A stretch of 64,000 bases of DNA from Gammaproteobacteria bacterium (GTDB lineage: Bacteria > Pseudomonadota > Gammaproteobacteria > Eutrophobiales > Eutrophobiaceae), in assembly GCA_965215365.1 (NCBI GenBank), contig CBDCDS010000003.1, forward strand, positions 160,001 through 224,000, written 5' to 3'. The position numbers and the translations under genes were made by a program. Each line of letters starts with the position of its first letter. Position 1 is the first letter of the stretch. The notes below the pieces were generated by a model that saw nothing but the letters and a program-made list of their open reading frames with translations, made no database searches and had not been told where the DNA came from. Shown here piece by piece: positions 19,491 through 37,721 of the stretch.

Positions 19491-20154
19491 TAAGCAGACC
19501 GCATTGCTGGTGTTCACGAAAACGCCTGTACCGGGCACAGTGAAAACCCGCTTGCTGTCGGTGCTGGACGCGCAGCAGGCCGCCGCCATCCATGCCGAAT
19601 TATTGTGCTTTACCCTGGAGGTGGCGCGCCGCGCCGCCGTGAGTACTGTCGAACTGTGGTGCACACCGACCCGGCGGCATCCGCTTCTGCAAGGTCTTGC
19701 GCGCAGGTTTGCAGTGACGCTGCAGACACAGTCTGGCGCCGACCTGGGGGAACGTATGGACGCCGCCATGACGCGGACGCTGGCAAGCCACCGGCAGGTG
19801 CTGCTTGTGGGCAGTGACTGCGTGGACCTCAGCCCGGAGGATATCAACCTTGCCCTGGAACAACTGGCCGCGGGCAGCGAGGTGGCGCTGGGGCCGGCCC
19901 TGGATGGGGGTTATTACCTGATCGGGCTGTCCAAGCCGCAACGGCGCCTGTTTGAAGGCATCGACTGGGGCACCGATCGAGTCCTGCAGCAGACCCGCGC
20001 GCGAGTGGCGCAGTTGGGGTTAAGTTTGTTTGAACTGCCGCCGCGCCGGGATTTGGATCGCCCTGAGGACTTGCGCTATTTCCGGCCGCACGCGCCGACC
20101 GGGGAAGTCATTGCCCGGCAGGCGGGTTTTCTTCCTTGGGCGCGTAATCCTTGA
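19483..20154 (+). CDS. TIGR04282 / DUF2064-like glycosyl/nucleotidyltransferase; start codon lies in the MITE end
   Basis: FTKTPVPGTVKTRL, QSGADLGERM, VGSDC, LGPALDGGYYLIG, WGTDRV, DLDRPEDL; typical partner of TIGR04283. Confidence 0.87.
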   Translation: MRVKQTALLVFTKTPVPGTVKTRLLSVLDAQQAAAIHAELLCFTLEVARRAAVSTVELWCTPTRRHPLLQGLARRFAVTLQTQSGADLGERMDAAMTRTLASHRQVLLVGSDCVDLSPEDINLALEQLAAGSEVALGPALDGGYYLIGLSKPQRRLFEGIDWGTDRVLQQTRARVAQLGLSLFELPPRRDLDRPEDLRYFRPHAPTGEVIARQAGFLPWARNP

Positions 20155-20608
20155 TAAATTGCCGCGCCAGTTTTTTCGCTTCCTCCAGTTCTTCCGCCGA
20201 CAGGTTCTGTTCAGCTGTGGTGAGCGCGGCCATGGACTTCTTGTGCTCCTGCTCAGCGCCGGCGCGGTACCAGGCATACGCGTACTCGTAGTCTTTAGGC
20301 ACCCCTCTACCCTTCATGTAAAGCTCAGCTAGGTTATACTGGGCCTGTTTGATACCTTGTTCCGCAGCCTTGCGGAACCAACCCGCCGCTTCATCGTAAC
20401 TCTGTTCCACGCCGTGCCCGCGCAAATACATCATGGCGACATAGTATTGGGCAAGGCCGTGGTCAGCGGTTTCTGCAAGCGAACGCATGGTGTTGTAGGC
20501 CTGCTCATATTCCCCCCTGGAATAGGCAAACACACCGCTATAGAAGTCGGCAAACGCGGCGGGCGCGGACCAACACGCGAGCACAAAGACCAGCAAAAGT
20601 TTTTTCAT
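20108..20608 (-). CDS. Secreted Sel1-repeat protein
   Basis: Signal peptide; AQYYVAMMYLRGHGVEQSYDEAAGWFRKAAEQG and AQYNLAELYMKGRGVPKDYEYAYAW. Confidence 0.9.
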   Translation of the reverse strand: MKKLLLVFVLACWSAPAAFADFYSGVFAYSRGEYEQAYNTMRSLAETADHGLAQYYVAMMYLRGHGVEQSYDEAAGWFRKAAEQGIKQAQYNLAELYMKGRGVPKDYEYAYAWYRAGAEQEHKKSMAALTTAEQNLSAEELEEAKKLARQFIKDYAPKEENPPAGQ

Positions 20609-20615
20609 GGGTGGG

Positions 20616-20621
20616 ATTATA
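20616..20621 (-). promoter_or_regulatory. -10 box TATAAT 7 nt before the Sel1 gene ATG (possible leaderless transcript)
   Basis: Minus strand ggcTATAATcccacccATG; no SD. Confidence 0.5.
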
Positions 20622-20683
20622 GCCTATATTTTTTTCGGCGCCGGCGTTCAGTATTCTCGTGTGCGCGGGAATGAACCTGGGTC

Positions 20684-21352
20684 TCAACCCGGTTGATTGG
20701 TAAAAAAGGTCTTGATCTGGTTAGCCAGAGACTTGCAGGCGTTTTCTTGGACGCGGGCCAGTAGTGGCACCGGGATGATGACTGCCGGCATGAATGAGGT
20801 GCCTTTGGTTTCGGCGTTGATCTTGCCGGATAGGGCCAGTTCTTTGAAATCCCAGATACTGGCCTCGTAGTTGGCCTCATCCTTCCAGTAAGCAAACCCG
20901 AAACAACCGCCGCCGCCCGGTCCTACGGCGCAGGACACGGAGCCGGATTTATCCGTTCTTTCGGTGGCGCCGTCTATCCAGACGAAGTAGCGCAGGTTGA
21001 AATCGTTGAATTTCGAGGCAATCGCGGGGATTTGCGCCAGCCGGCCCAGGTTTTTCACGTCCATAGGCGCGGTGCTGGTCTCAAAATAGGGGTACATGCT
21101 GTCGACAAATTCCTGTTCCGGGATCACGTTGATGTCGGACTGGCCCTGGCGTAGCGATTGGCCGACACAACTGATGAAGTCATTCTCGGTTTCATAGCCG
21201 GAACTGTGCCGCCGTCCCAGCACCACGATGGCCTCGCCCCCGGCGATCATTGCCGTCGGCGCTTCCCGGTGCTCGTCGATCACGGTCGTGCTTTTGCAGC
21301 CAGACAGCAAGGCTGTGGCGAAGAGGACAGTGACGGCGGTCGGTATGTTCAC
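20684..21352 (-). CDS. Hypothetical lipoprotein of the VWA/ExbB operon
   Basis: Lipobox LLSGC; co-oriented with the operon; SCAVGPGGGGCFGF motif. Confidence 0.8.
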   Translation of the reverse strand: MNIPTAVTVLFATALLSGCKSTTVIDEHREAPTAMIAGGEAIVVLGRRHSSGYETENDFISCVGQSLRQGQSDINVIPEQEFVDSMYPYFETSTAPMDVKNLGRLAQIPAIASKFNDFNLRYFVWIDGATERTDKSGSVSCAVGPGGGGCFGFAYWKDEANYEASIWDFKELALSGKINAETKGTSFMPAVIIPVPLLARVQENACKSLANQIKTFFTNQPG

Positions 21353-21369
21353 GCTCGTAGCCTATTCAG

Positions 21370-21559
21370 GTTATTCATCCACAGATAACGCAGATAGTTA
21401 TTCATCCACAGATAACGCAGATTAACGCAGATTATTTCAGGAATCTTCGGTCGCATGTGCAAAAGGAGAACAAGTAGTGGCGCTTAACAATGCCCATGCC
21501 CTCCGTATTTTCTGTAATGAAAAACTATCTGCGTTAATCTGCGTTATCTGTGGATGAAT
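21370..21559. repeat. Inverted-repeat element built from 9/10-nt CGCAGAT units (family 2, copy A)
   Basis: Perfect 33-bp IR 21400-21432 / 21527-21559 (attcatccacagataacgcagattaacgcagat) around a 94-bp core; 26-bp tandem duplication at 21370-21395 / 21397-21422. Confidence 0.9.
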
Positions 21560-22163
21560 CAAACTGCTCCAGCCAGGCGCTGACGTTTGCCACTTTCGAA
21601 AAGCCAAGCGCAAATCTGGCGCCGGCGTCGCGTAAGGCCTGGTTGACCGCAGCGTTAAGGCCCTTGTTGCGGCTTTTCATAAATTCGGTGGAAGATTTGC
21701 CGTAACCGGTCACCGACCAGTTGGCAATGGCGCTGCCGTCCCGGTTGTAGAGTTCCACGTGGTACTTGATCCAGGCCTCGTAGAAGTCCGTCTTAGTCTC
21801 TGCTGGCAGGGCAAACTGCATTTCTGAGATGCTGGGCAGCAACACTGCGTGCACCTCGACCCGGGTGTTGGTTGTTGGCACTTCCGTGACCTCAGCGAAC
21901 ATGGCAGTCAGGATTTGCTGAAACAGGGCCAGATGGGAGGCGCCGCTGTCGATCTTCCATTCGGGCCGGTCTTCGGAATCTTCCTCGTAAACGTAATTAC
22001 GCAACTCGTCCGTATAGACTACCCCCATTTTCACCGGCAGGCGGGAGACGACCGGACTGGGAATCTCGCTGTCCACCCGCAACGACATGGACTGTTGGCA
22101 GGCAGTGAGGAACAACGCCAGCCCGAGCGGGGCAATGAGTTTATACAACACCTGTATGCGCAT
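21534..22163 (-). CDS. Hypothetical lipoprotein; last codons and stop come from repeat element A
   Basis: Lipobox FLTAC; C-terminal SSTDNAD* is read from the IR arm. Confidence 0.8.
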   Translation of the reverse strand: MRIQVLYKLIAPLGLALFLTACQQSMSLRVDSEIPSPVVSRLPVKMGVVYTDELRNYVYEEDSEDRPEWKIDSGASHLALFQQILTAMFAEVTEVPTTNTRVEVHAVLLPSISEMQFALPAETKTDFYEAWIKYHVELYNRDGSAIANWSVTGYGKSSTEFMKSRNKGLNAAVNQALRDAGARFALGFSKVANVSAWLEQFDSSTDNAD

Positions 22164-22187
22164 ATTCACAGATTAGCACAAATACAA

Positions 22188-22325
22188 TCCGCAGATGACG
22201 CAGATGGGCGCAGATATTTTCGATGATTCATGGATGCTTTAGGTTGCCCCCTGCATTGACGATGGCGAGCAGAAAAATTTTGAAATTCCTGAAAATAATC
22301 TGCGTTCATCTGCGGCATCTGCGGA
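22188..22325. repeat. Inverted-repeat element, family 2, copy B
   Basis: Arms tccgcagatgacgcagatgggcgcagat (22188-22215) and atctgcgttcatctgcggcatctgcgga (22298-22325), 3 mismatches; core unlike copy A; abuts the VWA gene stop. Confidence 0.85.
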
Positions 22326-23330
22326 CTAAAATGCCCGGCCTGGCTCGTTCAGACCTACATAAGCCCCGCCGTTCTCGTGAGTGAGTTGGCGCATGAGGGC
22401 GGCGAAATGCCTGTTAGTCAGCTGGAAGTGTTCGGGGGCGCTGGCGGGAACCGGGAAGCCAACTGCGTGGATGCGCACTTTGGTGTTGCCGTGCTGGTCT
22501 TTCGGGTTGATGCGTTCCACCGCGTCCAGCACTTGCCTGATTGAACCGGAAAATTCATCGCCGTACACGTAAATGCTGATCTTCTTGCCGGGGTCGTAAA
22601 ACGTGCGGATCGCTTGGGTAATCCCCTCCACCGGGCTGCTGTTGCTGAAGGTGCGCCAACTGCGCAAAGTCCTGATGATGACCCGGCGCCGGCCTTCGGT
22701 GTCGGGTATCCATCTGCGCCGGTATTGGGAGAACAGGTACTCACCCATGTCGCTCATGATCTGTATGCCTTGCAGGCGGGGATAGACGTCCAGAGTGGTG
22801 ATTAACTGCTTGATCATGTTTTCCCAGTGACTGTTGACCATGCTGCCTGAGGTGTCGATGATGAAGATGACGTACTCGCTGTCCACCGGAATGCCGCCGA
22901 TCAGGCCGCTCTGCGCCCGATCGGTCTGCGCCAGCAAGCGTTTCATCTCCGCCGTCAGAGTTTGCAGGGCCAGTTCAAATTCACCCTTGATGATCTCGCC
23001 CACGGCAGAATCGTCGCGCACGCTGTTATAGCGCAGCTCCTCTTGCACCAGTTCCGCCTCCAGGCGCGCCACCCGTTGCCGCCACTCGGAACGCTGTTCG
23101 TGTTTGGCGTTCAGTTCCCGGTCCAGAACTTTCGCCTCGCCGCGAATTTCAAACAACTGGATCTGTAATTCCCGCACGATGCCTTGCAGAGATTCCTGGG
23201 CGCGCTCCAGGATGGGGCTGTCACCGGTTTTGGCGATCATCAGCAACAAGATGATAGCGCCGAAGCCGCAGGTGATGACGTCCAGGAAGGAAATGCTGAA
23301 CGCCTCGTTCTCGCGCCGTTTTTTCCTCAT
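22326..23330 (-). CDS. Membrane-anchored coiled-coil + VWA domain protein
   Basis: N-terminal TM SFLDVITCGFGAIILLLMI; coiled coil; MIDAS FIIDTSGSM. Confidence 0.85.
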   Translation of the reverse strand: MRKKRRENEAFSISFLDVITCGFGAIILLLMIAKTGDSPILERAQESLQGIVRELQIQLFEIRGEAKVLDRELNAKHEQRSEWRQRVARLEAELVQEELRYNSVRDDSAVGEIIKGEFELALQTLTAEMKRLLAQTDRAQSGLIGGIPVDSEYVIFIIDTSGSMVNSHWENMIKQLITTLDVYPRLQGIQIMSDMGEYLFSQYRRRWIPDTEGRRRVIIRTLRSWRTFSNSSPVEGITQAIRTFYDPGKKISIYVYGDEFSGSIRQVLDAVERINPKDQHGNTKVRIHAVGFPVPASAPEHFQLTNRHFAALMRQLTHENGGAYVGLNEPGRAF

Positions 23331-24412
23331 GGCCAGTCCTCGCTGGGGATGAGGAAGGCGCCGTTGGTGCTCATGGCCAGACGCCAGAAGGCAAAAGCCG
23401 CGTTGGGGTCGCCTTCCATGGGCGCCAGGATCACATTCATCGGTATGCCACCGGGCAGACGTTCTACCGCCCGGGTAAACAAGTCCAAGCGTTGCTTGCC
23501 AGTGATGGTCGCCCCGCGTACCCGTTTGGAACCCTGAGTAGGCAAGCCGTCGGTGATCAGATAGACGTTATCGGGCCGGGGCCGCAGCTTACTGATAGTA
23601 ACAAAGGCCTGCTCCAGATTAGTGCCGCCTTCCGGCACGATCCGGCCCAGGGCTTCGATCATCGCGTTCAATTTCGCCTTGTTGCTGACCTCCAGCCACT
23701 TCCCGGCCAGCCCCGGTAACAATGCGCGCGCTTTTGTATTGAACACGTAGATCTGGTACTGGCTGTCCCTGGGCAGCCGCGCGCTGAGCCAGTCCACCAT
23801 CCTTAACGTCTGCACCCATTTCGGCGCGTTGCGTTTTACGCCGTCACGCATGTTGCGAAAGCGGATGATATTGACGATGGTATCGTCCAGCATGCTGCTG
23901 GAGACATCCAGCAGGATGAGGATACGCTTGCCGTCCAGCTTCAGCCCGGTCAGATACTCGCGCTTGCCGTCACCGACCAGACGCCGGACATCGCTGCCGC
24001 GGTCCTTCAGATCTTCCTGCAACTGTTGCTTCTGTTCCTCCAGTTGCTTGATGTTGAGCTTCAGTTGCTCCAGCTCTACGCTGCTGGTAGTCTCCGACAG
24101 TTGTTCGATCAAGGCGCGCGTCTCCTCTATTTTCGCCATAATGCGCCGCGCCATGCCCTGCGCCACGACCAGTTCCTCGTCGATTTCCGAGATGGTGTTG
24201 CGGGTTTTGGCGAGGTTCTGCCGGCCTTCCAGTATTTCCTCTTCCAGCAACATCACCTCAGCGGTCTGCTCCCGGTTATTAACGGGAATGGGCACGTTGG
24301 TATCGACGTTATGCTTGATGATGAGGAACAACAGCACCGCCGAGCCGAAGCCGCAGGACATGATGTCCAGAAACGATAGGCTGAAGGGAGTAAGCAGTCT
24401 GCGGTTACGCAC
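23327..24412 (-). CDS. Membrane-anchored coiled-coil + VWA domain protein (paralog)
   Basis: SFLDIMSCGFGSAVLLFLII; MIDAS LLDVSSSM, GGTNL, LITDGLP. Confidence 0.87.
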   Translation of the reverse strand: MRNRRLLTPFSLSFLDIMSCGFGSAVLLFLIIKHNVDTNVPIPVNNREQTAEVMLLEEEILEGRQNLAKTRNTISEIDEELVVAQGMARRIMAKIEETRALIEQLSETTSSVELEQLKLNIKQLEEQKQQLQEDLKDRGSDVRRLVGDGKREYLTGLKLDGKRILILLDVSSSMLDDTIVNIIRFRNMRDGVKRNAPKWVQTLRMVDWLSARLPRDSQYQIYVFNTKARALLPGLAGKWLEVSNKAKLNAMIEALGRIVPEGGTNLEQAFVTISKLRPRPDNVYLITDGLPTQGSKRVRGATITGKQRLDLFTRAVERLPGGIPMNVILAPMEGDPNAAFAFWRLAMSTNGAFLIPSEDWP

Positions 24413-25719
24413 TATGTCAGGACTCTGATCAGCGCGAATTCACGGTCGCAGTGGGCAAAGCTGATGGTGTCGCCCGGCCTGAGGTCGGTATTGCTTGCGG
24501 CGGCCCGACCGTTGACGTAAACCGCGCCATGGCTTGCCGGAAACAGGGTTGCCGTGGCGTCGTTCAGGGCTACCGAGCAAAGCGGGTTGTGGCTGTCGGA
24601 CTGCACCGGCGCGCCCTGCGCAGACAGGTATAGCGGCATCGCCCCCAGCGGATAGGCCTCGACGCCGGCTAGGATATGGGTTGGGCTGGCTTGTTGTGCC
24701 AAGACTGCCGGCGCGGTAACGCCAATTGCCGGCTGTGCAGTGGCCGCAAGCTGAGTGACGAAGTAAATCGCTGCGCCGGCCTTGCGCTGTTGCTGCACAT
24801 AGTCCATACAACCGGCATATACGGCGCACACGTCCAAGGTATCGACCTGCGGGGTGACTCGCGTCAGCTGTTCGACAACAGCCGGCAAGCCGGCCAGACG
24901 CGGGTGCAGCAACGCCACCCGGTCGCTCTCGACGGCAGCGCTGAGCTTGTCGTACAACGGTTGTAACGCCGCCACCAGTTGCTCCCGGCCCACCCGGGCC
25001 TGGTAACGGGCCTGCTCAAATTCAATATCGACCTGCGTCTCAGCCCCCTGCGCCAGTTCGCGCAGACATTGCGCCATGCGGTTGCACAAGGCCTGTTCCG
25101 TTACTGCGTGGTGCAGGGGGTCAAAACGGGATTGCCGAATGAACAGGTCGGCAACATGGTTGACGCAGCTATCCTGAATTTCCAGCAACCCGACTTCATT
25201 GACAACCTGCACCGCCGTGCGCTGCACCGTGTCTGACACCTCCAGGGAAGTCATTACAGTCTGATGCAGGTGGATATCCAAGTGCACGTAACTCCCGGCA
25301 CCGGCCGTCGCCGCCAGCGCCGCGACAGCGCTGTCCACCAGACCCACCGCAGTAAACGGGGAGGCCTCCAACAGCCCCAGCAGCAGGGCCAGTTGCTCCG
25401 CGCTGAAACTACCCGGCACCGCCAGCGCCACCTGCTCCACCCCATCCGCCATTTCATGCAAAGACAGCAAATGGGCGTAGGCCAGATCGGCATTATGCCG
25501 CGCCAGTTTCGAGTGGTGCTTGAAGCCATCCTGATTAAGATCACTCCAAAACCGGCTGAAGGTATTACGCGGGTCAATATGGGTAGCCGCCAACGCCGCC
25601 CGCCCCAGCTCAACCCGATCCTCTTTGAGCACCGCAATGCCGGGGCTACTCACCACGACCTCACCGCCCCGGAAGAGCGTTACTCCGGCATCGTTGAGTT
25701 CAATGACGGCGGTGTTCAT
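24412..25719 (-). CDS. Hypothetical protein: degenerate Hsp70/actin-like fold plus C-terminal FHA-like domain
   Basis: AVIELNDAG, VALAVPGSFSAEQ...GLVDSAVAA and VHLDIHL resemble Hsp70 motifs; SHGAVYVNG...LRPGDTISF resembles FHA. Confidence 0.65.
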   Translation of the reverse strand: MNTAVIELNDAGVTLFRGGEVVVSSPGIAVLKEDRVELGRAALAATHIDPRNTFSRFWSDLNQDGFKHHSKLARHNADLAYAHLLSLHEMADGVEQVALAVPGSFSAEQLALLLGLLEASPFTAVGLVDSAVAALAATAGAGSYVHLDIHLHQTVMTSLEVSDTVQRTAVQVVNEVGLLEIQDSCVNHVADLFIRQSRFDPLHHAVTEQALCNRMAQCLRELAQGAETQVDIEFEQARYQARVGREQLVAALQPLYDKLSAAVESDRVALLHPRLAGLPAVVEQLTRVTPQVDTLDVCAVYAGCMDYVQQQRKAGAAIYFVTQLAATAQPAIGVTAPAVLAQQASPTHILAGVEAYPLGAMPLYLSAQGAPVQSDSHNPLCSVALNDATATLFPASHGAVYVNGRAAASNTDLRPGDTISFAHCDREFALIRVLT

Positions 25720-25728
25720 TTATATGCT

Positions 25729-25776
25729 TACCGCACCTGCAAATGCCGCAGCAGGTTGACGTCGCAGTAATGCTGT
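25729..25776. repeat. 48-bp direct repeat, copy 1 (3' end of the exbB/motA-like gene)
   Basis: taccgcacctgcaaatgccgcagcaggttgacgtcgcagtaatgctgt, identical to 27122-27169. Confidence 0.95.
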
Positions 25777-25874
25777 ACGAGAAGGAAAGTTATTTTATTC
25801 ATTGACAAACCTTTGTAGATGTGTCACAAAGTGGGTGTTGTAATTCCGAATTCCAAACACACTAGGAGACGAGT

Positions 25875-26457
25875 ATGACACAACTGACACACTACCTCAA
25901 AAATCGGGGGGGGGGGGGGTAACCCTGTAGCCGAGAAAATATCCGCAACGAAAGCTGCCCCTGTACCGGGAGCAGCGTTCCTGATTTTCGTGCTGGCGCT
26001 GCCCGCCGGTGGGGCGCTGGCCAACACGACTACCGGGATGATCGACGGCAATTATGCCGTGCAGTTGCCGGCCGGTATTTACATGCGCAACTCGAGGGGG
26101 TACACAACGGTCTGTATTCAAATCACTGGCAGTGGCAGCACTGCGACAGGGACAATTAAGGCCCGCAGGCACAATGGCACGTGGGAGAGTCTCACCGGCT
26201 CTAGGACGGTCACGTTACTCGGATTGGGCGTAGAAAACCCCTCAAATGACCAACTGGGAAGAAGAGAACGTGCTTGGCTGGCATCTTGGGGCCCCAGACC
26301 CACAAACTGGAACGGCAACAATCGCCGCTTTGATGAACATGGCTGGAGAGGCCACTTGACAAGCGGAAATGTATTGCGCGTTGCAGTGGATAATCATATC
26401 CTGAAAATGACCGGAGATGGCCGATTACCCATGACCCATGGGAGCAGCTGCCCGTAG
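25875..26457 (+). pseudogene. Secreted hypothetical protein frameshifted at a G14 tract (candidate phase-variable gene)
   Basis: SD AGGAG + ATG 25875 reads MTQLTHYLKNRGGGG*; G run 25906-25919; the next frame is open from there to 26457 with hydrophobic signal AFLIFVLALPAGGALA. Confidence 0.7.
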
Positions 26458-26476
26458 TAACTCGAACAACAAACCT

Positions 26477-26519
26477 TGATGGGGAGTCAGTCCTGAATTA
26501 ACCGACTGGCTCCTCATCA
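26477..26519 (+). terminator. Stem-loop downstream of the poly-G gene
   Basis: tgatggggagtcagtc / gactggctcctcatca, 16-bp stem with two G-U pairs; no clear U tract. Confidence 0.5.
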
Positions 26520-26537
26520 CTGTAAAGGCCACCTCTA

Positions 26538-26694
26538 ACCCGCAGCTCTCACCAAGTCGCTTGTTGCGTTGTGAAAAATGATTGCTCTCAATAAGTTATG
26601 GTAATACTGCTGCTCTTTCCACCTAACACGGTGCGCTTGATCCGCCCTCGCCAGTCTTGGTTCTGCCTGCGGGCAAACCCGCAGCTCTCACCAA
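26538..26694 (-). mobile_element. 137-bp right module of MITE family 1 (26538-26674) plus terminal stub (26677-26694)
   Basis: TA-acccgcagctctcaccaagtcgc...ttggttctgcctgcgggc, reverse-oriented match to the right part of the 241-bp element, then acccgcagctctcaccaa. Confidence 0.85.
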
Positions 26695-26698
26695 ATTA

Positions 26699-26938
26699 TC
26701 AGGCAACATGTATTTCCTCCCGGATGACCCGACGCAGAGTGCTTTCAAGGGGTTCACCCTGACGCTGCACATGGTGGCGTAGCGCGTCATTTATCAGGGA
26801 TTGATAATTTCCACCGCCCCGTACCTGATCCTTGACCCATTGAATAATATCCGGATCAAGTCGAATCGTAATACGTTCTTTCGCAGTTTTAACTATTGCC
26901 CCGCGTCTGCCTTCACTGAAATCATAATGTTCTCTCAT
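26699..26938 (-). CDS. brnA: BrnA family antitoxin
   Basis: MREHYDFSEGRRG...KERITIRLDPDIIQW...GGNYQSLINDALR. Confidence 0.85.
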   Translation of the reverse strand: MREHYDFSEGRRGAIVKTAKERITIRLDPDIIQWVKDQVRGGGNYQSLINDALRHHVQRQGEPLESTLRRVIREEIHVA

Positions 26939-26942
26939 AGTA

Positions 26943-30379: not shown

Positions 30380-30391
30380 TTTTTCTACCTT

Positions 30392-30838
30392 TTATCGTTT
30401 TATGGGGTCAAATAACGGGTTGCGAGTCAACAGGGATGGGAAACGGCTGAAGTCCTTGTCCGCGGTGAATAACTCACTGACTCCGTGAGAGAGACAGATG
30501 GTGGCAATACGCGCATCATGAATCTCCGGGCCTCGGGCTCTGCCGTCCGTTATCAATGAGTCCAACCGCGCCAGGTGATCGGCGGCTTCACCTATCATGA
30601 CCAGAGACGGGGATGCAAGCCAGGCGCCTACCTGCTCAAGAGCCTGCGGCGCGGTAGAAGGCGGATCATAGATCCGGGGATGCGTTGCAATAGCTAGGAA
30701 TTCGTGGACGCACGGCCACGGTATTGCCCAAGCATGTTGTGCCTGGGCAAGACTTGTTACTACGTCTCTTGCGCGTTGATGCCATTCGCTGTCCTGCCGG
30801 TGTGCATAAACCAGTATATTTGTGTCAACGGCGATCAA
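30392..30838 (-). CDS. vapC: VapC / PIN-domain toxin
   Basis: TTG start overlapping the antitoxin stop; IAVDTNILVYAH, HEFLA, HDARIA, TADKDFSRF. Confidence 0.9.
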   Translation of the reverse strand: MIAVDTNILVYAHRQDSEWHQRARDVVTSLAQAQHAWAIPWPCVHEFLAIATHPRIYDPPSTAPQALEQVGAWLASPSLVMIGEAADHLARLDSLITDGRARGPEIHDARIATICLSHGVSELFTADKDFSRFPSLLTRNPLFDPIKR

Positions 30839-31080
30839 TTGCCGCGGTCCTCGTAGGCGGCGTGTCTGACAGATGCCCAAGGCTTGTCCCTGAATTCGGC
30901 CCGCAACCCGTTCCCGGCCACGCTCCTGTCTGCCAGACGGAACAATTCGGCCCGCTTGGCTTCCTGCAGGGCATAACGGAGGCCTTGTTCAACGAGCGCT
31001 CGAAAAGTAGTGCCGCGTTTCGCCGCAAGCGCCTTGGCTTCCAGCGCCAGCGCATCGGATAAATCAATGGTTGTCTTCAT
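30835..31080 (-). CDS. vapB: VapB family antitoxin
   Basis: MKTTIDLSDALALEAKALAAKRGTTFRALVEQGLR, RHH-type, coupled to vapC. Confidence 0.85.
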   Translation of the reverse strand: MKTTIDLSDALALEAKALAAKRGTTFRALVEQGLRYALQEAKRAELFRLADRSVAGNGLRAEFRDKPWASVRHAAYEDRGN

Positions 31081-31223
31081 GCTGTAAACCCATATCAGAT
31101 GATATGGGAGACCATATACTACATTGGATGGTCCTGTCAAGAGCATGTTCATGTTTTCTTTTTCTTGCCACCAGTGCCATATCGTCCGTATAATACACAC
31201 TCGGACAAATGTAAGGAATGCGC

Positions 31224-31502
31224 ATGCGTTTTGAATGGAATCGGGCAAAGAACGAGATCAATATCCGCAAGCACGGAATCGACTTTGCAGATGTAGGGGA
31301 GATGTTTGATCATCCGACATTGATCTTGCAGGATGTCCGTAAAGACTATGGAGAAGAGCGTTGGGTTGCCATTGGACAACTGCAATCGTTGCTATGCGTT
31401 GTTGTCTATACCGAACGCCCCGGTGATGTGCTGCGCGTTATTTCCGCCAGAAAGGCGACTCAATATGAAAGACAACGCTATGAAAAAAGGATCAAGAACT
31501 GA
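31224..31502 (+). CDS. brnT: BrnT family toxin
   Basis: MRFEWNRAKNEINIRKHGIDF...DYGEERWVAIG...VVYTER...RVISARKAT; SD AAGGA. Confidence 0.92.
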   Translation: MRFEWNRAKNEINIRKHGIDFADVGEMFDHPTLILQDVRKDYGEERWVAIGQLQSLLCVVVYTERPGDVLRVISARKATQYERQRYEKRIKN

Positions 31503-31610
31503 TTGGAAGCGGCTAAGGCAAATGAAGGATGAGACTATTGATACCGGCGATATTCCAGAACTGGATGATGAGTTCTTTCGACGGGCAGAAGTAAAGACCA
31601 TGCCCAAGCT
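31480..31610 (+). pseudogene. brnA: BrnA antitoxin N-terminal half (RHH C-terminus lost)
   Basis: MKKGSRTDWKRLRQMKDETIDTGDIPELDDEFFRRA followed by unrelated sequence; no TLRLD...YQT.IN segment. Confidence 0.7.
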
Positions 31611-31707
31611 CGCAGGCCCATGGGGCATCTTTGAAAAGTTGAGCAGTCTTCTGCATATCCGGTTTGATAATGAGGGAAAACCGGTCAGCAAATCATCCCC
31701 ACTCCCC

Positions 31708-33762
31708 TCAATACGCGAATCGGGCAATTCTGAAACCTAAGTCATTTCTGGCTGCGCTGTCGTAGTCGCGGTGGGACAGGCGTAGTTCGGTGACGGTGCT
31801 GTGGCGCCAGCTGGCGCCGCGGATGACATGGAGGTCGCCACGGTCCGGCCCCATGGGATTGAGTTCGGCTTTTTTGTCGGTACTGACTACTACGTCATAG
31901 ACATCGTTGACCCACTCTGCGACATTGCCGCCTAAGTCGAACAGGCCCTTGTCGTTGGCGGGGAAGCTGCCTACCGGCGCGCTGACGATGTGCCCGTCAT
32001 CGTACTCGCCGATGATACGCCCCAGCAGGGTGGCGGCCTTGCGGTCGGCGTAGTTGCCGCTGTTGGCTGCGGGCGGCATGGCGGCGCCCCAGGGGAACTT
32101 GAGGGTGGCGCCCGTGCCGGTGGTGCGCGCCGCCCAGGCCCACTCCGCCTCGGTGGGTAAACGGTAGCCGTCGGCGGTTTTGTCAAACCCGGTGATGTTA
32201 CCGTTTTCCTCAAGATAGAACGGCGCCAGGGACGCCTCTTTGCTCAACCAGTTGCAATACTGCGCGGCCTGCTCCCAGCTCAGGTTCACCGCCGGCTGGT
32301 TATCCCCGTTCAGGCTGTTGCCCTGTACACTGCCAGAGGAAAAATCCTTGCTGAACAAGCGGTACTCCCGGTTCGTGACTTCTTTCAGACTCAGGTAAAA
32401 CGGGCGTGTGAGTTGCACGTTGCGAATGGTTTCATTGGCCCGGCGTCCCGGTTCCCGGCGCGAGGCGCCCAGGGTGACCGGGCCCGGGTAAAACAGCTTG
32501 AGGCGTGGCCCGCCCGGCGCCTCAATGACTGGCTTGAGAGCTTCCAGCTTGGCTTGTTTGACGGTCTTTAAGGTCACATTCAACTGCTGTTCCACACCGG
32601 GCAGGGGGGTGAGTGCGGTCTTATAATCCACATAGCCCGGCTTGCGCACTTCGATGTTGTGGGCACGCGTGGATAAACGCAAGGCGCCATCGGTGACTGC
32701 GGCCAAGGCGCCGTCCACATACACTGCAGCGTCGGCCGGTTTGATCTTCACGGCCACGCGCACCCACTCAGGCTGTAAGTTGACGGACACTCTTTTCTGC
32801 TCGCCCGAACGCGCCTGCACCGACATGGAGGCAGGTTGGTAGCCCTGTTTGAACAGACGCACTTGCGCGGTTTCTCCCGGTGTCAAAGGAACCTCCAGCG
32901 GCGTCAACCCCAGGAAATTGCCGTTTAAGGTGGCATTCGCCCGCGCCGGGTCGGAAACCAGGAACAAGGTGGCATCCGCCGCTTCCAGCCTGATATCAGT
33001 CAGCTCCTGCGGCTCGCCGGCGACTACGGCAATCGTGTCCTGCCAGGCCTTATAGCCGTTCGCCCGCACCGTCAGCTCATGCCTGCCTTCCAATAATTCC
33101 ACCGTGAGCGGAGTTGTGCCAAGCAGGTCTGCGCCGCTGAACACCTGCGCCTGCGGCGGCGTCGATGCCAGCCTGAGCATCGCCCAGGCCGGTTTCAATG
33201 CAGCGCTGAAACGCTGTTCCCGATCCAGCCCTGCCAGCATGACCGTCGCACGCAACGGCAAATAGCGTTCTGCCTTGATCTCAACCCGATACTCGCCAGG
33301 TACAAGGTCGCTGAGCAGCAACGGCGTCTCCCCCCTGGCCACGTTATCTAAGAACACGGTCGCGCCGGTAACGGCGCCGGTGTCTATATGCAGGTGTCCG
33401 GGCAGTTGCTCCAGCCGGTAAACATAATGCTGTGCCGCGGCGTCGGTGACGACCAGGGTTTCCTGCAACGGCTGGTAGCCTACGGCAGTCAGCGTCAGGT
33501 CATAAGTCCCGGCGCGCACTAGGTAGCGCTTGCCCAGTTGCAGTTGTAATAGGCCGGAAATATCGATGTTGGCAGCGGGCGGTTCCGTTTCAATATACAC
33601 TGCCCTGGTGGTCAACATGAACCAGACACAGCCGGCCGCGCCGACGAGTAACGCGCCGAGCAGGCACAGGCGCAGGTTGATCCTGAGCGACCAACCGGAT
33701 TTTTTTGACGAAAGCGGCTCGAATTTTGCCGCGTCAATACGGGCATCGGCACTAACCCGCAT
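31708..33762 (-). CDS. Membrane-anchored PEGA-repeat + FGE-sulfatase (SUMF1-fold) protein; present start lies in the MITE end
   Basis: TM helix, several PEGA repeats (LGTTPL, GYKAW), C-terminal EVTN, RLPTEAEWAWAAR, GLFDLGGNVAEW, LGFRIAR. Confidence 0.9.
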   Translation of the reverse strand: MRVSADARIDAAKFEPLSSKKSGWSLRINLRLCLLGALLVGAAGCVWFMLTTRAVYIETEPPAANIDISGLLQLQLGKRYLVRAGTYDLTLTAVGYQPLQETLVVTDAAAQHYVYRLEQLPGHLHIDTGAVTGATVFLDNVARGETPLLLSDLVPGEYRVEIKAERYLPLRATVMLAGLDREQRFSAALKPAWAMLRLASTPPQAQVFSGADLLGTTPLTVELLEGRHELTVRANGYKAWQDTIAVVAGEPQELTDIRLEAADATLFLVSDPARANATLNGNFLGLTPLEVPLTPGETAQVRLFKQGYQPASMSVQARSGEQKRVSVNLQPEWVRVAVKIKPADAAVYVDGALAAVTDGALRLSTRAHNIEVRKPGYVDYKTALTPLPGVEQQLNVTLKTVKQAKLEALKPVIEAPGGPRLKLFYPGPVTLGASRREPGRRANETIRNVQLTRPFYLSLKEVTNREYRLFSKDFSSGSVQGNSLNGDNQPAVNLSWEQAAQYCNWLSKEASLAPFYLEENGNITGFDKTADGYRLPTEAEWAWAARTTGTGATLKFPWGAAMPPAANSGNYADRKAATLLGRIIGEYDDGHIVSAPVGSFPANDKGLFDLGGNVAEWVNDVYDVVVSTDKKAELNPMGPDRGDLHVIRGASWRHSTVTELRLSHRDYDSAARNDLGFRIARFAY

Positions 33763-33995
33763 ATCTCACCAAGTCGCTTGTTGCCTTGTGAAGCATGATT
33801 GCTCTCAATAAGTTATGATAATACTGCTGCTCTTTCCACCTGACACACTGCGCTTGATGCGCCCTCGCTGGTCTTGGTTCTGCCTGCGGGCACGTGCTTG
33901 TTCAACCATAGCTACCGCTATGGTTTCGGGCGCAGGCACCCGCAGGCAGAACCAATCCGGCGCGATCTTCGCATCACTTGGTGAGATATGCGGGC
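33755..33995 (-). mobile_element. Full-length 241-bp MITE family 1 copy (reverse orientation)
   Basis: TA-acccgcatatctcacc...ggtgagatatgcgggc; colinear with the tandem copies on the minus strand. Confidence 0.92.
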
Positions 33996-34012
33996 TGGGG
34001 TCAGTCATCAAC

Positions 34013-35629
34013 TCAGTCCCCCAATGCGATCTTTTCGCTGCTGCTGACCAGCACCGGCCCCATGGCTTTATCCGGGTCTATAAAAAACTCCACGCGCACA
34101 TCGCGATAGCCGTCGCGGTGGCCGACTGCCACGTAATGGCCGGGACGCAATGACAGCACTTTGTTGGTAAAAACGCCCAGCTCACCCACCTTGTAGAGGG
34201 TGACCCGGGTCAGGTTATCGGAGTGAAGTTCGACGGTGACCGGGGTGGCCGCCAGTGTGAGCAGGCGAGTGAGCTTGTCCAGTTGCGCGGACAATATCGG
34301 ACCGGGTTCGGGCAAGGCCAGGATGGCATTGAGAAAACCGGCTACGTCACTGTACACGGCCTCATCAAACAAGCGCTGCGGTTGCGCCAGTATTTGCTCC
34401 AGTCGGGTATGTATTTGCGCGCGCGAGGTGGCGCGCTGTTGCCCTTCCAAGGCATTGCCCAAGCTGCTGTTTAACTTCAAGGCCGCGTTATAAGAAGCGA
34501 TTGCGCCTTGCCAGTCTTCCTGCTGTTCCGCGTCTTGTGCCTGTTTCAGGGCCGCATTGACCTGCGTTGAGGTGAGGCGTTGCGTGGCCTGTTCAATGCC
34601 GTCACGCGCTGCGCGTGAGCGCGGCTTCAGCTTGAGCGCCTGACTGAATGCGGCCCGCGCCGGTTCGTGGCGTTCCTGTTCCAATAAGCGGAAGCCAGAG
34701 GACATGGCAAGATTGAAGGCGTTATCGTTGATGCGGGCTGTTGTCAGGTCCAGCTGTTGTCTGGCGCGCGTGGACTGAGCATCTACGTCCAGCGCCTGTT
34801 GATAGATGTCGCGGGCCCGTTCGGGTTTGTCGTCCCGCAACAAGGCATCGCCTTGCTCGAGCAGCGCCATGAGCCGGGGCAGGTTTTGCGTGCGCTCCAG
34901 GCCCAGCAGCGCCTCCCGGTCGATGGGGTCGATGGCCAGGGCGACCTTAAACGCAGCGGCGGCGGCATCAGCAGCGCCAGCGGCCAACGCCGCATTGCCG
35001 GCTGCCATACTGTCGGCAAACAATTGCTCGATACCCTCCAGTAATCCGTTCAGGAGGTCTAGGGCGGTGGCATAGTGGTCGTGCGCCTGGGCAAAATTCT
35101 GGCGGCTGTAGTCGGCGTCTCCCGCTTGCGCGTGTTCCAGCGCGCGCGCGTACTCCTTCTTGCCCCATAGGGTTACGCCTCGCTCCTCCAGGGTTTTCTG
35201 GGCATCCAGCAATTCCTGCAGCAACGCTTGGCTGTCTTTGCGCACCGAGAACTGTTGCGCTCTACTCCACGGGGTATCTGCCGTGGCGGGCGCACCTGCT
35301 GCCGGTGGCGGGGTTTGCCTTGTGGCTTGAGCCGCGCGCGGGGCGGCGACAACGGGTTTGCCGTGGCGCGCAGCGCTGCCGCTTTCGATAGTCGGGTTTT
35401 CGATAACCGGGGACGGCAGCCAGCGCGGGAATAACAGGAACATGACGCTCACGACGCACAACAGCGCGCCGCCGCCCAGCCATAACCATGGGCGCGCAAG
35501 CAACTGTCGGCCAGGAAAATGTGAGCCAGACGCACGCCCGCGTTTTGAGTCCTTGCCGCCGGCAGCAGCAGTCAGGTCAACCGCAGCCGGCTTTATCGGG
35601 ACAAAACCAGGCTCTGTACTTCCTGTCAT
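34013..35629 (-). CDS. Membrane-anchored TPR-repeat protein
   Basis: One TM, Pro/Ala linker, TPR-like repeats (AFKVALAIDP, YQQALDVDA, FSQALKLKP); C-terminal LRPGHYVAVGHRDGYRDVR. Confidence 0.82.
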   Translation of the reverse strand: MTGSTEPGFVPIKPAAVDLTAAAGGKDSKRGRASGSHFPGRQLLARPWLWLGGGALLCVVSVMFLLFPRWLPSPVIENPTIESGSAARHGKPVVAAPRAAQATRQTPPPAAGAPATADTPWSRAQQFSVRKDSQALLQELLDAQKTLEERGVTLWGKKEYARALEHAQAGDADYSRQNFAQAHDHYATALDLLNGLLEGIEQLFADSMAAGNAALAAGAADAAAAAFKVALAIDPIDREALLGLERTQNLPRLMALLEQGDALLRDDKPERARDIYQQALDVDAQSTRARQQLDLTTARINDNAFNLAMSSGFRLLEQERHEPARAAFSQALKLKPRSRAARDGIEQATQRLTSTQVNAALKQAQDAEQQEDWQGAIASYNAALKLNSSLGNALEGQQRATSRAQIHTRLEQILAQPQRLFDEAVYSDVAGFLNAILALPEPGPILSAQLDKLTRLLTLAATPVTVELHSDNLTRVTLYKVGELGVFTNKVLSLRPGHYVAVGHRDGYRDVRVEFFIDPDKAMGPVLVSSSEKIALGD

Positions 35630-36810
35630 TGTCCGGCATCAACGACAGTCCCGGTTTCCGTTGCATGGATCTCCTTGAGGATGCGGCGCCATTGGCCGTA
35701 TTGCTCATTGACTGTACCGGACAGAGTCACCGTGCGATCCTCCAGTTCTATGGAGTGTGGCTGTATTTCCGAATCCAGCGATGCGGAAATTTCTTCCAGC
35801 GCTTCGACATGGATTTTCGCTTCCTCACGCTTTTGCAGGCCGCTTTGTATTGCCGTAGCACCGGCGAGGATGCCGACCGCACCTGCCGTGTTTGCAGTCT
35901 CGCTGTCAACCCCTTGCGCCAAGATGCCGGCCAGCACTGCCAGCGTGCCGCCGATCAGACGGGCACTCGCCTGGGACTTGACCTCCCGCAACGCCTGACT
36001 CTCCAGGTAAAACGCCTCGCGCCACTCCCGGTACGGCGCCTCCATCTGATTGACAAACGAGGCATAGTACTGTTGCAAGGTATCGACAAAGATAGAGTCG
36101 CGCTCGCGGATCTGGCGCAGCTGCTGCATGGCCGGGTCGCCCGCCGCGGGCAGGCGCTTGATGGCGTAGCGCCCTTTCTCATCCGGCGCCAGATAATTGT
36201 GGAACAGTTCGGGCGAGAAGTCGCGGGCAAATTTCAGTTCGGCAACGGTGCGTATCGTCCTGATCTCCCCGGCGCTGAGCAGGCTGCGATAAGCCAGCAT
36301 ATCGTTCGCGATCCGGTTATAGATTTTCTGAAACGGTTCGCGCTTGTTGGCCGTGCGGTCATCGTAAGAATACTTGCCGGCCACTGCCGTGTATTTCTTG
36401 CTGAACCAGCGCTTGCCGGTGGCATCTTCCACGCTTATGCGTAACCACAGGTTTTCCCCGTCTGACTTGAGGATTTCCCCGTCCACCCACACGTCCATTT
36501 CACTGAGCCGGTCCGGTATCACCCGCACTACGCCCCAGTTACCGCTGTGTTGCAGGGTGTCCATCAGCTGGTACGGGACGAACCGGGCCTCTGCTGCGCG
36601 GATTTCCGGAAACACGCCTTCTTGCTCGGCACTGATGGCGTCGGTGCCGGGATTGAAGATGCCGACACCCACATCCAGCAACAGTTCTTCAGGCGTTGCC
36701 TGCGCCTCTAAGGTTACCTGCTCGTAGCTGGTGGTCTTTACCGTGGTGGTGTTACAACCGATCAGGCCGAAGCACAGCGCGACGACCACTGCAATCTGAT
36801 TTGTTCTCAT
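35626..36810 (-). CDS. Hypothetical lipoprotein with glycine-zipper-like segment
   Basis: Lipobox LIGC; GGTLAVLAGILAQG...AGAVGILAGATAI. Confidence 0.8.
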   Translation of the reverse strand: MRTNQIAVVVALCFGLIGCNTTTVKTTSYEQVTLEAQATPEELLLDVGVGIFNPGTDAISAEQEGVFPEIRAAEARFVPYQLMDTLQHSGNWGVVRVIPDRLSEMDVWVDGEILKSDGENLWLRISVEDATGKRWFSKKYTAVAGKYSYDDRTANKREPFQKIYNRIANDMLAYRSLLSAGEIRTIRTVAELKFARDFSPELFHNYLAPDEKGRYAIKRLPAAGDPAMQQLRQIRERDSIFVDTLQQYYASFVNQMEAPYREWREAFYLESQALREVKSQASARLIGGTLAVLAGILAQGVDSETANTAGAVGILAGATAIQSGLQKREEAKIHVEALEEISASLDSEIQPHSIELEDRTVTLSGTVNEQYGQWRRILKEIHATETGTVVDAGQ

Positions 36811-37700
36811 CTTGAATCTCGCTTGTACTTACGGTATTCATCCCACAATTTTTCCCTTAACTCGGGATCCTGCTCTTTCATGGCGGCCTCGCGCAACTGG
36901 CGCGCGATGATGTCGTCATCCCTGGCGTCAGCCAGGTCCGGCGGCACCTGACTGTGGCTGGGCGTTGAAATATTCCCTTCACCCTTGACCGCAATGGGGT
37001 CACTGTCAACCAGTGCGGTTTGCAGCGGCTCCCCGGCCGCCCCGCCGCTGGCGGCATCAGCCGCGGCCAGGGCCTCGTCTTCGCCATAGCCACCGCTGCC
37101 TTCCTGGTCGGCCCGTTCATTGTTGGCCTGCTGTTCGCTTAGCATCACCCGGTCAAATTCCGCAAAACCCTGTTGCAGTTGTGTACCCAGCGCCTGCTTC
37201 CGTTCCGCGTCGGTTGTTGCCGGACTGCCGGCGCCGGCGGACCCGGGCTCGGCGCCGGTCGCATCCTGCCCGGCGGCATCCGGCCGGCGCTCCAGCGCCT
37301 GCAAGGCTGCGGCTAGGATTTCGTCCTCGGTCTGTTCCCGCCCACCGGCGCCAGCGGCTGTTGCCCCGGGCGGCTGTGGCCGCCCACCGGTCGGCATCGG
37401 CGTCCGTGCGCCAGCGCCGCCGGCAGCCGTGGCCCCGGGTTGCGGCGTCGGCAGGGAGCTCGTACCCGGCGCCGGCGCACCTGGCGTAGCGCCCGCCGCC
37501 GGCGCCGAACCGGGAGCCGGCAAGCCGGGGAGGCCCGCCGCCGGCACCTGAACGGATGGTGCGGACGGAGCGGATGACCCCGTTGACGGCGCCCCCGGCA
37601 CGCTTGGCGCCCCGGAGGAACGAGTGACAGGCGTGGTGTTACAGCCGGCAACCAGCGCCAGAACAAACATTACGGCCATGAATGGTAATGTTTTTTTCAT
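36807..37700 (-). CDS. Pro/Ala/Gly-rich lipoprotein with helical C-terminus
   Basis: Lipobox LVAGC; low-complexity linker; DDDIIARQLREAAMKEQDPELREKLWDEYRKYK. Confidence 0.78.
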   Translation of the reverse strand: MKKTLPFMAVMFVLALVAGCNTTPVTRSSGAPSVPGAPSTGSSAPSAPSVQVPAAGLPGLPAPGSAPAAGATPGAPAPGTSSLPTPQPGATAAGGAGARTPMPTGGRPQPPGATAAGAGGREQTEDEILAAALQALERRPDAAGQDATGAEPGSAGAGSPATTDAERKQALGTQLQQGFAEFDRVMLSEQQANNERADQEGSGGYGEDEALAAADAASGGAAGEPLQTALVDSDPIAVKGEGNISTPSHSQVPPDLADARDDDIIARQLREAAMKEQDPELREKLWDEYRKYKRDSR

Positions 37701-37721
37701 AATGAACACCCTGATTACTTA

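Follow-up and report, generated by a model that had tools for sequence, protein, structure and literature searches.

The window analysed here, a stretch of 64,000 nucleotides from a gammaproteobacterial genome of 2.7 Mb (GenBank assembly GCA_965215365.1, contig CBDCDS010000003.1, positions 160,001 to 224,000), holds within positions 20108–37709 a cluster of 11 genes, g01 to g11, all encoded on the minus strand according to the list of open reading frames (ORFs) and the sequence. The cluster is likely a member of the family of TolQ-like motors with paired trans-pore-helix vWA proteins and likely works as proposed for that family: a MotA/TolQ/ExbB-type channel protein (g06) would work with two different membrane-tethered proteins that carry von Willebrand factor A (vWA) domains (g08 and g09, hereafter VWA1 and VWA2). 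The core design was already predicted computationally in 2025, in ‘Origin and Evolution of Bacterial Periplasmic Force Transducers’ (Mol Biol Evol 2025;42:msaf138; PMC12204202); as far as the available text of that paper goes, what is new here is the detail of the accessory parts. A sequence-only reading of the window had described 11 co-oriented and partly overlapping genes, an ExbB-like channel, two vWA proteins that each begin with a basic tail and an Asp-bearing transmembrane (TM) helix (SFLDI or SFLDV) followed by a coiled coil and a metal-ion-dependent adhesion site (MIDAS), proteins with PEGA, formylglycine-generating enzyme (FGE)-like and TPR domains, lipoproteins, and an operon with no TonB, ExbD or MotB gene. 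All of these features are seen: the pairs g01/g02, g02/g03, g07/g08 and g08/g09 overlap by 4 nt or 1 nt, the PEGA, FGE and TPR domains have Pfam matches, four lipoproteins have lipoboxes, and no cluster protein matches the ExbD, TonB or MotB families in Pfam or NCBIfam or exceeds any NCBIfam equivalog cut-off. The host genome has three ExbD-family genes, all outside the cluster and each adjoining another MotA_ExbB gene. The same reading passed over g07 (24412–25719), g05 (27932–28225) and the toxin–antitoxin and methylase genes inserted among the cluster genes.

The two vWA proteins, VWA1 (23327–24412) and its paralogue VWA2 (22326–23330), share one plan. Each has a basic tail and a hydrophobic N-terminal helix (residues 10–33 and 10–36 in the two proteins, by hydropathy) with an Asp inside the TM segment, Asp16 in SFLDIMSCGFG of VWA1 and Asp17 in SFLDVITCGFG of VWA2. 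A coiled coil, ~87 residues long in VWA1, leads to the vWA domain with its MIDAS, D169-x-S171-x-S173 in VWA1 and D159-T-S161-G-S163 in VWA2. The VWA1 domain is matched by Pfam VWA_3 (7e-07) and VWA_2, the VWA2 domain weakly (E 0.0077), and the proteins are 22–28% identical across their first halves. VWA1 ends in DWP, and the C-terminal WP is kept in 83/83 orthologues. Conservation of the TM Asp, on which the sequence-only reading had staked its proposal, is very strong: all 44 VWA1 sequences keep D16, all 41 VWA2 sequences keep D17 and the MIDAS residues, and both sets take in distant loci of reduced layout (‘type B’, below). A VWA1 profile collects 2359 clusters (50% identity) at E <= 0.001, 410 of them at E <= 1e-30. 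Among the best 150 of the 2359, the helix Asp stands at a fixed position in 119 of the 121 representatives with an intact N-terminus (6 or more residues ahead of the G[FL]G motif of the helix); the two exceptions have aberrant N-termini, and the other 29 are truncated, fragments or missed by the regular expression, two of them visibly holding FLD. The MIDAS motif is present in 144 of the same 150. Reading residues 1–40 of either vWA protein revealed no S-x3-H (SHLS-type) pattern. Ten diverse representatives are named only ‘VWA domain-containing protein’ or ‘hypothetical protein’. These features support the view that the vWA proteins take the place of an ExbD, TolR or MotB partner. At one related locus (L017), the VWA2 frame at 6315–7319 has an internal stop and could be a pseudogene or an assembly error.

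The channel subunit g06 (27121–27924, 267 aa) matches PF01618 at E 6.3e-15 (55.5 bits, cut-off 22.9). All of 39 aligned sequences share P184, G187, G190, T191, N222, S223 and T224, and in a weak profile alignment with E. coli TolQ (8odt; E 0.029) T191 falls on T145 and T224 on T178. In PMC12204202, as far as its available text goes, the TolQ ring threonines T145/T178 are described as essential. Thus, judged by family match and conserved residues, g06 is assigned to the MotA/TolQ/ExbB family with conserved pore threonines, and its hydropathy suggests four TM segments in a MotA-like topology. A canonical TolQ or ExbB identity was rejected: g06 reaches 24.7 bits against TIGR02796 (tolQ; cut-off 221) and 21.5 against exbB2 (cut-off 135), far under both equivalog cut-offs. 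Single-sequence searches of the PDB with g06 and g07 gave nothing useful.

VWA1 and VWA2 are also predicted to associate. Modelled as a heterodimer with a separate alignment for each partner, they gave ipSAE (interaction prediction score from aligned errors) values of 0.81, 0.82 and 0.81 in three runs, the best of 3 controls giving 0.00; the mark applied to this score is reached by 58/80 solved complexes and by 2/110 mismatched pairs. The predicted local distance difference test (pLDDT) of the partners is 75–76, and at least 67% of contacts are common to the runs. The modelled interface is a heptad-spaced coiled coil of VWA1 46–132 with VWA2 48–133, and the contacts run on between the C-terminal faces of both vWA domains. 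The model supports, rather than shows, a parallel coiled-coil stalk of ~13 nm (0.15 nm per residue) that bears paired heads.

In the literature covered, PMC12204202 alone describes this design. According to the available text, genes for TM-tethered vWA proteins, mostly in heterologous ‘TPH-vWA’ pairs, are tightly linked to tolQ homologues without tolR or exbD; the trans-pore helix of their products resembles that of TolR/ExbD and bears a conserved Asp, and in an AlphaFold 3 (AF3) model of 5:2 stoichiometry the Asp pair lies within the threonine ring. The family is reported there from Proteobacteria and Verrucomicrobia, with an exemplar from Idiomarina and with no known function; a gliding role is suggested for another vWA family (PMC12204202). 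The sequence-only reading had called the system uncharacterised, a claim it was ready to give up for a match to a characterised system. Experimentally the word stands; computationally it does not, given that published description (PMC12204202, in the text available).

The gene order itself recurs in distant genomes, at ~60–77 public genome loci, which is more than chance. VWA1 was found in 24/41 related genomes, among them 21/22 of the same genus, and in 22/300 genomes evenly drawn from the class (one genome unscored; 21/299 without G063, which is flagged unpublished), with a patchy spread over many families. A pattern scan of species genomes confirmed at least 573 stretches of at least 590 candidates; the best 80 of these at least 573 come from marine Gammaproteobacteria, including Microbulbifer, Halieaceae, Cellvibrionaceae, Pseudoalteromonas denitrificans, Thalassomonas and Maricurvus. 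Genes were counted with hidden Markov models (HMMs) built from orthologues and only at loci with enough flank; the HMMs include genome-locus sequences, and the genome counts restate the tblastn result and are no independent test. By these counts the genes keep close company, as the sequence-only reading had expected. VWA2 lies directly downstream of VWA1 at 77/77 genome loci and at 64/64 distant metagenome loci, and the corresponding pairs of values are 76/76 and 48/53 for g07, 71/72 and 38/40 for g06, 67/68 and 13/24 for g04, 64/66 and 9/18 for g03, 61/64 and 7/15 for g02, 59/63 and 7/14 for g01, 71/73 and 9/47 for g10, and 67/72 and 1/40 for g11. Two layouts can be told apart: ‘type A’ has the full set as in the window, and ‘type B’ has, of the cluster genes, g06-g07-g08-g09 only, with a convergent TM-TPR gene, genes for two unknown secreted proteins and a DUF4136-like lipoprotein gene as extras. 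The invariant core is g06 with VWA1 and VWA2, nearly always accompanied by g07 and a TPR protein. In one type B locus (L109), VWA2 is directly followed by an opposite-strand gene of the Porphyromonas-type peptidyl-arginine deiminase family (12104–13690; PF04371, 3.2e-25).

Around this core, the type A cluster encodes two bitopic inner-membrane proteins, four lipoproteins and a small secreted protein. The g04 protein (31708–33762) has a tail, a TM helix (28–55, by hydropathy), four PEGA domains (PF08308, 1.8e-45) and an FGE-sulfatase-like domain (PF03781, 3.6e-39). Its best NCBIfam match is the GldK model TIGR03525, which covers the FGE-like part only. There is no Cys within 12 residues of its RGASW, the stretch just after which we take the FGE catalytic Cys pair to sit, and the same holds for 63/63 orthologues with an RGxSW motif (9/72 lack the motif under the regular expression used). 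This absence had been noted for the window protein in the sequence-only reading; with the Cys pair absent throughout, a catalytic formylglycine-generating enzyme was ruled out and the domain is predicted to be non-catalytic. The other bitopic protein, g03 (34013–35629), consists of a cytoplasmic tail of ~45 aa, a TM helix (47–76, by hydropathy), a Pro/Ala-rich linker, TPR repeats (TPR_2, E 1.1e-13) and a C-terminal beta domain.

The lipoproteins g01 (36807–37709), g02 (35626–36810, 394 aa), g10 (21534–22169, 211 aa) and g11 (20684–21352, 222 aa) all have a lipobox, which is kept in 60/65 orthologues of g02 and 69/75 of g10. In g01, a low-complexity Pro/Ala/Gly-rich linker precedes a conserved C-terminal helix motif (..DDDIIARQLREAA..DPELREKLWDEYRKYK), and ARQ[LI]REAA lies within the last 70 residues of 60/61 orthologues. 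Beyond the lipobox Cys, g11 has four invariant cysteines (C62, C141, C150 and C206; 34 sequences), with no Pfam family in any of the 34 members; g01 and g10 match no Pfam or NCBIfam family. For g02, which has no Pfam family and in an Atlas search finds unnamed lipoprotein clusters only, an AlphaFold2 (AF2) model (pLDDT 75.3) comprises an N-domain, a long helical hairpin, in which a Gly-rich segment has low confidence, and a small C-terminal domain. Foldseek matches of the N-domain are weak (E 2e-4 to 1e-2) and list DUF330 XCC0632, the flagellar LPHT ring, FlgT, CsgG, PelC, LptE and the TolB N-domain; their TM-scores are low because single domains are matched, and the predicted fold weakly resembles that of outer-membrane ring/plug lipoproteins. 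The small acidic secreted protein g05 has no convincing Pfam family. It carries a C-terminal motif (..EEVSEDYSIDFPVDI) and ends in [FY]PxDI in all 27 recovered orthologues.

The remaining protein, g07 (435 aa), is cytoplasmic and joins a domain like the Hsp70 nucleotide-binding domain (NBD; residues 1 to ~320) to a degenerate FHA-like domain (~345–435). Its AF2 model has a pLDDT of 92.7. Residues 1–321 find Hsp70 NBDs in Foldseek (E 1e-17), and VIA over the same residues gives Z 29.3 to Ssz1 (root-mean-square deviation 3.1 over 319 residues), 29 to the Ssb1 NBD, 24 to MreB and 16.5 to PilM. There is no Hsp70 substrate-binding domain, and the C-terminus is FHA-like instead. At the places of DLGTT and DLGGGT, which we take to be the canonical Hsp70 phosphate-loop motifs, the g07 consensus reads ELND and HLDLQLHQ (compared by sequence); ATPase activity of g07 is doubtful because the consensus is without these Gly-rich loops. 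The C-terminus is weakly similar in a profile comparison to the EssC FHA domain (E 7e-4). The Pfam FHA model (PF00498) matches 0/39 close orthologues (the window protein and 38 others) and 7/11 distant homologues, six of them at E 1e-10 to 1e-13 and one at 3.5e-4. With one distant homologue, that of locus L136, the window protein shares 31% identity end to end (E 3e-49); the L136 C-terminus is a Pfam FHA domain (7.6e-12), and g07 aligns through it without an SRxH-like stretch. In locus L014 (G012), the g07 homologue at 12173–13488 is split over two frames (12173–12379 and 12394–13488), which could reflect a pseudogene or an assembly error.

Kinase-bearing relatives connect g07 with g03. In the 4/4 distant type A loci tested (L136, L153, L164 and L168), the g03 homologue has an N-terminal, cytoplasmic Ser/Thr kinase domain (PF00069, E 1e-24 to 1e-31), and the same four loci have a canonical FHA domain on g07. 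In the branch of the window, by Pfam, g03 is without the kinase domain. A short motif, [IVLM]xPxxF, occurs in the cytoplasmic tails of g04, that of the window included (56/72), and of g03 (30/65), and was found in 0/83 and 0/81 sequences of the two vWA proteins. The PEGA-FGE protein of the same four metagenome loci has an extra cytoplasmic N-terminal part of ~130 residues with no Pfam match.

From these parts a mechanism can be proposed. In the inner membrane, g06 would form an ion-conducting ring of the MotA/TolQ/ExbB type, presumably a pentamer, and the N-terminal helices of VWA1 and VWA2 would pair inside it, replacing ExbD, TolR or MotB, as AF3 modelled for relatives (PMC12204202, in the text available). 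The sequence-only reading had inferred the 5:2 stoichiometry that this model shows for relatives. Proton flow via the helix Asp residues would turn ring and pair against each other. The modelled parallel heterodimeric coiled coil (~87 residues, ~13 nm) would hold the paired heads deep in the periplasm, where these, with their metal-ion sites intact, may grip an acidic envelope-side ligand, for which the FGE-like domain of g04, the acidic C-terminus of g05 and the lipoproteins g01, g02, g10 and g11 are candidates. The bitopic g03 and g04, which co-occur with the lipoproteins, may make with them an envelope-spanning frame. As the sole cytoplasmic protein, g07 probably docks either on g03 and g04, through their [IVLM]xPxxF tails, or on a g06 loop, and in relatives this docking may be phospho-regulated through the kinase on g03 and the canonical FHA domain on g07. 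By analogy with Tol-Pal, the machine would most likely transmit proton-motive force to an outer-membrane or cell-surface process.

Several points weigh against membership in the motor family as set out above. Pfam finds no ExbD match at E up to 1 in residues 1–50 of either vWA protein, and hhalign of the vWA N-termini with the genome's own ExbD/TolR aligns 6 columns (probability 0.8%, E 0.069), pairing SFLDIM with PLIDVV, Asp on Asp; the TM helix thus appears to resemble ExbD at the level of a motif only, and homology is not demonstrable. The best PDB profile match of g06 is the weak one to TolQ (E 0.029). The heterodimeric vWA subunits of the sequence-only reading agree with the model, and homodimers would be compatible with it too: VWA1 and VWA2 are paralogues and close paralogues often pass, so the pass does not separate a heterodimer from homodimers. 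The g07 gene is absent from loci L012, L132, L135, L138, L140 and L148 and is therefore not strictly obligatory. None of g01–g04, g10 and g11 was found in type B loci; therefore, the envelope frame is not universal. Foreign cassettes and repeats fill two intergenic gaps of the cluster in this genome, and no member of the family is experimentally characterised.

The kinase and FHA architectures bear on a different reading, in which the cluster serves mainly to sense or signal the state of the envelope and not to perform work, like TagQ/TagR/PpkA/Fha1 of the Pseudomonas aeruginosa H1 type VI secretion system (H1-T6SS). Contact among lipoprotein, FGE-like and vWA parts would be read out through the cytoplasmic FHA domain (and the kinase in relatives), and the channel would gate or power sensing. 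The same domain types occur in both, namely lipoproteins, a Cys-less FGE-like domain, a periplasmic vWA domain and a cytoplasmic FHA domain, and all four distant homologues of the TPR protein that were tested have the Pkinase domain, in loci where g07 carries a canonical FHA domain. For P. aeruginosa, the available text reports that the TagR FGE domain is modelled to bind the PpkA periplasmic domain and that the TagQ/TagR/PpkA complex forms after membrane damage (PMC13713981); the PpkA sensor domain, which is periplasmic, is a vWA domain (PMC3224232, in the text available). Because the domain types are those of the TagR/PpkA pathway, the FGE-like domain of g04 comes first among candidate partners for the vWA heads, a lead and not a result. 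As an account of the window cluster the sensor is nevertheless unlikely: here g03 has no kinase, the FHA domain is degenerate in g07 and its 38 close orthologues, and the invariant Asp and pore threonines favour ion-coupled movement, something a plain sensor could do without. Sensor and motor do not fully exclude each other. One tentative and rather doubtful proposal, slightly better placed than the plain sensor, combines them in a proton-powered envelope probe, a Tol/Ton-type 5:2 motor joined to a T6SS-type lipoprotein/FGE-like/vWA/FHA(-kinase) module, two kinds of system so far regarded as unconnected. Under this single joint proposal, the motor would turn or pull a vWA-tipped stalk against a lipoprotein ring, the Hsp70-NBD/FHA protein would report the mechanical state of the link to the cytoplasm, and the marine gammaproteobacterial branch would have swapped phosphorylation for short docking motifs in the TPR and PEGA-FGE protein tails.

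A surface adhesion or gliding motor, with the vWA heads or their partners as moving adhesins, is quite improbable. The sequence-only reading had drawn an analogy in parts to Agl-Glt, the Myxococcus gliding system with the vWA lipoprotein CglB, which shares with the cluster a MotA/TolQ-family motor, TPR proteins, lipoproteins and a vWA domain (PMC9946355, in the text available), and a gliding role is the one proposed for another vWA family (PMC12204202, likewise). The analogy found no specific support, and Tol-Pal and TagQ/TagR/PpkA/Fha1 are closer parallels: no homologue of a Glt component was recognised in the cluster by Pfam or NCBIfam, the vWA domains here are tethered to the inner membrane and not surface-exposed, the cluster has no gene for an outer-membrane barrel or a surface adhesin, and its carriers include a 2.7-Mb genome and many planktonic-type marine lineages.

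The cluster genes themselves are intact in this genome, and the operon is interrupted twice, at 28.2–31.7 kb (g04/g05) and at 25.7–27.1 kb (g06/g07). The first interruption contains a type II DNA methyltransferase gene (28742–30379; PADLOC PDLC03356, 3.4e-192; Pfam TaqI_C, N6_Mtase and Eco57I), whose product has a helix-turn-helix and a TaqI-like specificity domain and which has no recognisable restriction enzyme gene alongside. It is accompanied by a PIN/VapC toxin gene with a small upstream ORF that has weak VapB-type matches only (30392–31068), and by a BrnT toxin gene (31218–31502, plus strand; 6.7e-26) followed by a small ORF without family. A hairpin with a 14-bp stem (28712–28744) lies at the methylase 3' end, and the GC content at 28–30 kb is 0.446, compared with 0.52–0.62 in the surroundings. 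The second interruption (25720–27120) consists of a gene for a BrnA-like antitoxin (26699–27004; 1.9e-12) with no adjoining BrnT partner, a repeat copy and ~1 kb without a convincing gene, a weak ORF at 25990–26457 on the plus strand being one example. At both sites the neighbouring cluster genes adjoin directly in the relatives L013 and L014, L011 has a gap of ~2.9 kb between g04 and g05 as well, and the toxin–antitoxin and methylase genes are absent at the same sites in relatives. Among contigs from four sequencing runs, none bridges a deletion of the inserted cassettes.

Repeats lie between several of the cluster genes. A repeat of ~240 bp resembling a miniature inverted-repeat transposable element (MITE) occupies 33757–33994 between g04 and g03, with a partial copy at 26540–26690; it has terminal inverted repeats of ~18 nt and an internal hairpin, and blastn finds roughly 100 or more copies in the genome. 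Contig depth spikes ~100-fold at this repeat in four runs, and assemblies break there. Short intergenic repeats at 21390–21450, 22170–22230 and 28310–28360 have ~11, 9 and 30 genomic copies, respectively (blastn), and contigs from public runs end near them or join other repeat sites.

At the downstream end, a Sel1 gene (20108–20608; PF08238, 3.2e-20), which the sequence-only reading had taken as trailing the cluster, has a counterpart at 0/80 related loci and lies outside the system. Upstream of g01, a promoter-like site at 37788–37760 on the minus strand is a consensus match only; the scan found 16 such sites, compared with 9.6 +/- 3.3 expected. A divergent neighbour on the plus strand (37739–38614) begins 30 nt from the g01 start and encodes 291 aa with a signal-like N-terminus and a HELGH zinc-protease-type motif. 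Rfam returned for 19000–39000 only two mir-214 matches (30.6 and 30.5 bits), which were rejected as noise, being below the cut-off of 66.7 bits, with one of them on the repeat hairpin.

Anti-phage defence of the Zorya kind, with a MotAB-like membrane sensor and effectors, can be given hardly any credence: Zorya re-uses a MotA/MotB-type 5:2 unit and toxin–antitoxin and methylase genes do sit within the cluster here, but PADLOC, ZorA/ZorB included, assigned no family to the seven core proteins tested (no match for six, and for VWA1 only SMC-like coiled-coil matches of E 0.002–0.007, taken as noise), no nuclease or other effector is encoded, the gene order is stable across genera and families, and the inserted genes are missing at the same sites in relatives.

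Ion-driven motors of 5:2 stoichiometry power flagella, TonB-dependent import, Tol-Pal, gliding and the type IX secretion system (T9SS), and Zorya defence. If the motor reading of the cluster is right, the family would add a further type of output, with integrin-like, metal-dependent binding heads on the central axle itself. It is widespread, with 2359 profile clusters and at least 573 genome stretches, and it occurs in cultured, non-pathogenic marine strains (such as Microbulbifer, Halioglobus japonicus, Maricurvus nonylphenolicus KU41E and Pseudoalteromonas denitrificans DSM 6059); therefore, the mechanism is directly testable. The kinase/FHA and FGE-like/vWA links give concrete binding hypotheses that go beyond the published description (PMC12204202, in the text available).

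Among the systems with which the cluster can be compared, the Bat operon (BatA-E) and MoxR-vWA systems were ruled out, with 19.1 bits against the BatC model (cut-off 175) and no BatA, MoxR or DUF58 family in the cluster by Pfam. The T9SS module GldK/PorK-GldL/PorL-GldM/PorM-GldN/PorN is likewise a proton-driven motor with a dimeric bitopic partner across the periplasm and includes a Cys-less FGE-like protein. In the cluster, by contrast, g04 is anchored by a TM helix and not by lipid, no GldM- or GldN-like protein is present, and the carriers are Gammaproteobacteria; membership of g04 in GldK/PorK was ruled out at 113.1 bits against the TIGR03525 cut-off of 350. With the threonine-phosphorylation pathway TagQ/TagR/PpkA/Fha1, as described in the available texts, the cluster shares an outer-membrane lipoprotein, a non-catalytic FGE-like periplasmic domain, a membrane-tethered periplasmic vWA domain and a cytoplasmic FHA protein, all in the same compartments, and its relatives add a Hanks-type kinase. 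The cluster differs from that pathway in having no T6SS genes, in a vWA domain that is not fused to a kinase and in a MotA/TolQ-type channel; the window cluster, moreover, is without a kinase and its FHA domain is degenerate.

Comparable too are the motors ExbB-ExbD-TonB, TolQ-TolR-TolA-Pal and MotA-MotB, in which a PF01618 channel with two pore threonines likewise works with a partner that has a short basic tail and a single Asp-bearing TM helix. Tol-Pal has in addition envelope-spanning partners, a TPR protein (compare CpoB with g03) and outer-membrane lipoproteins (compare Pal). The cluster departs from these motors in the periplasmic part of the partner, which is a coiled coil and a vWA domain and not an ExbD/TolR or OmpA-like domain, in having two different partner genes and an extra Hsp70-NBD/FHA protein, and in having no TonB/TolA-type protein with an SHLS helix. 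A canonical ExbBD, TolQR or MotAB unit was rejected, as no PF02472 or MotB/OmpA-like partner lies in the cluster. For the TPH-vWA motors, the text of section 8 of PMC12204202 makes no mention of Hsp70-NBD/FHA, PEGA-FGE, TPR or lipoprotein genes, nor of kinase variants or terminal motifs, and the cluster is likened to the Idiomarina exemplar by description. On that description the likeness extends to a tolQ-like gene with no tolR, exbD or motB beside it, two different genes for TM-tethered vWA proteins, an Asp-bearing trans-pore helix, conserved pore threonines, a place in the Proteobacteria and the lack of an SHLS motif; judged from sequence, every feature of the available description that was tested is found in the window cluster (PMC12204202).

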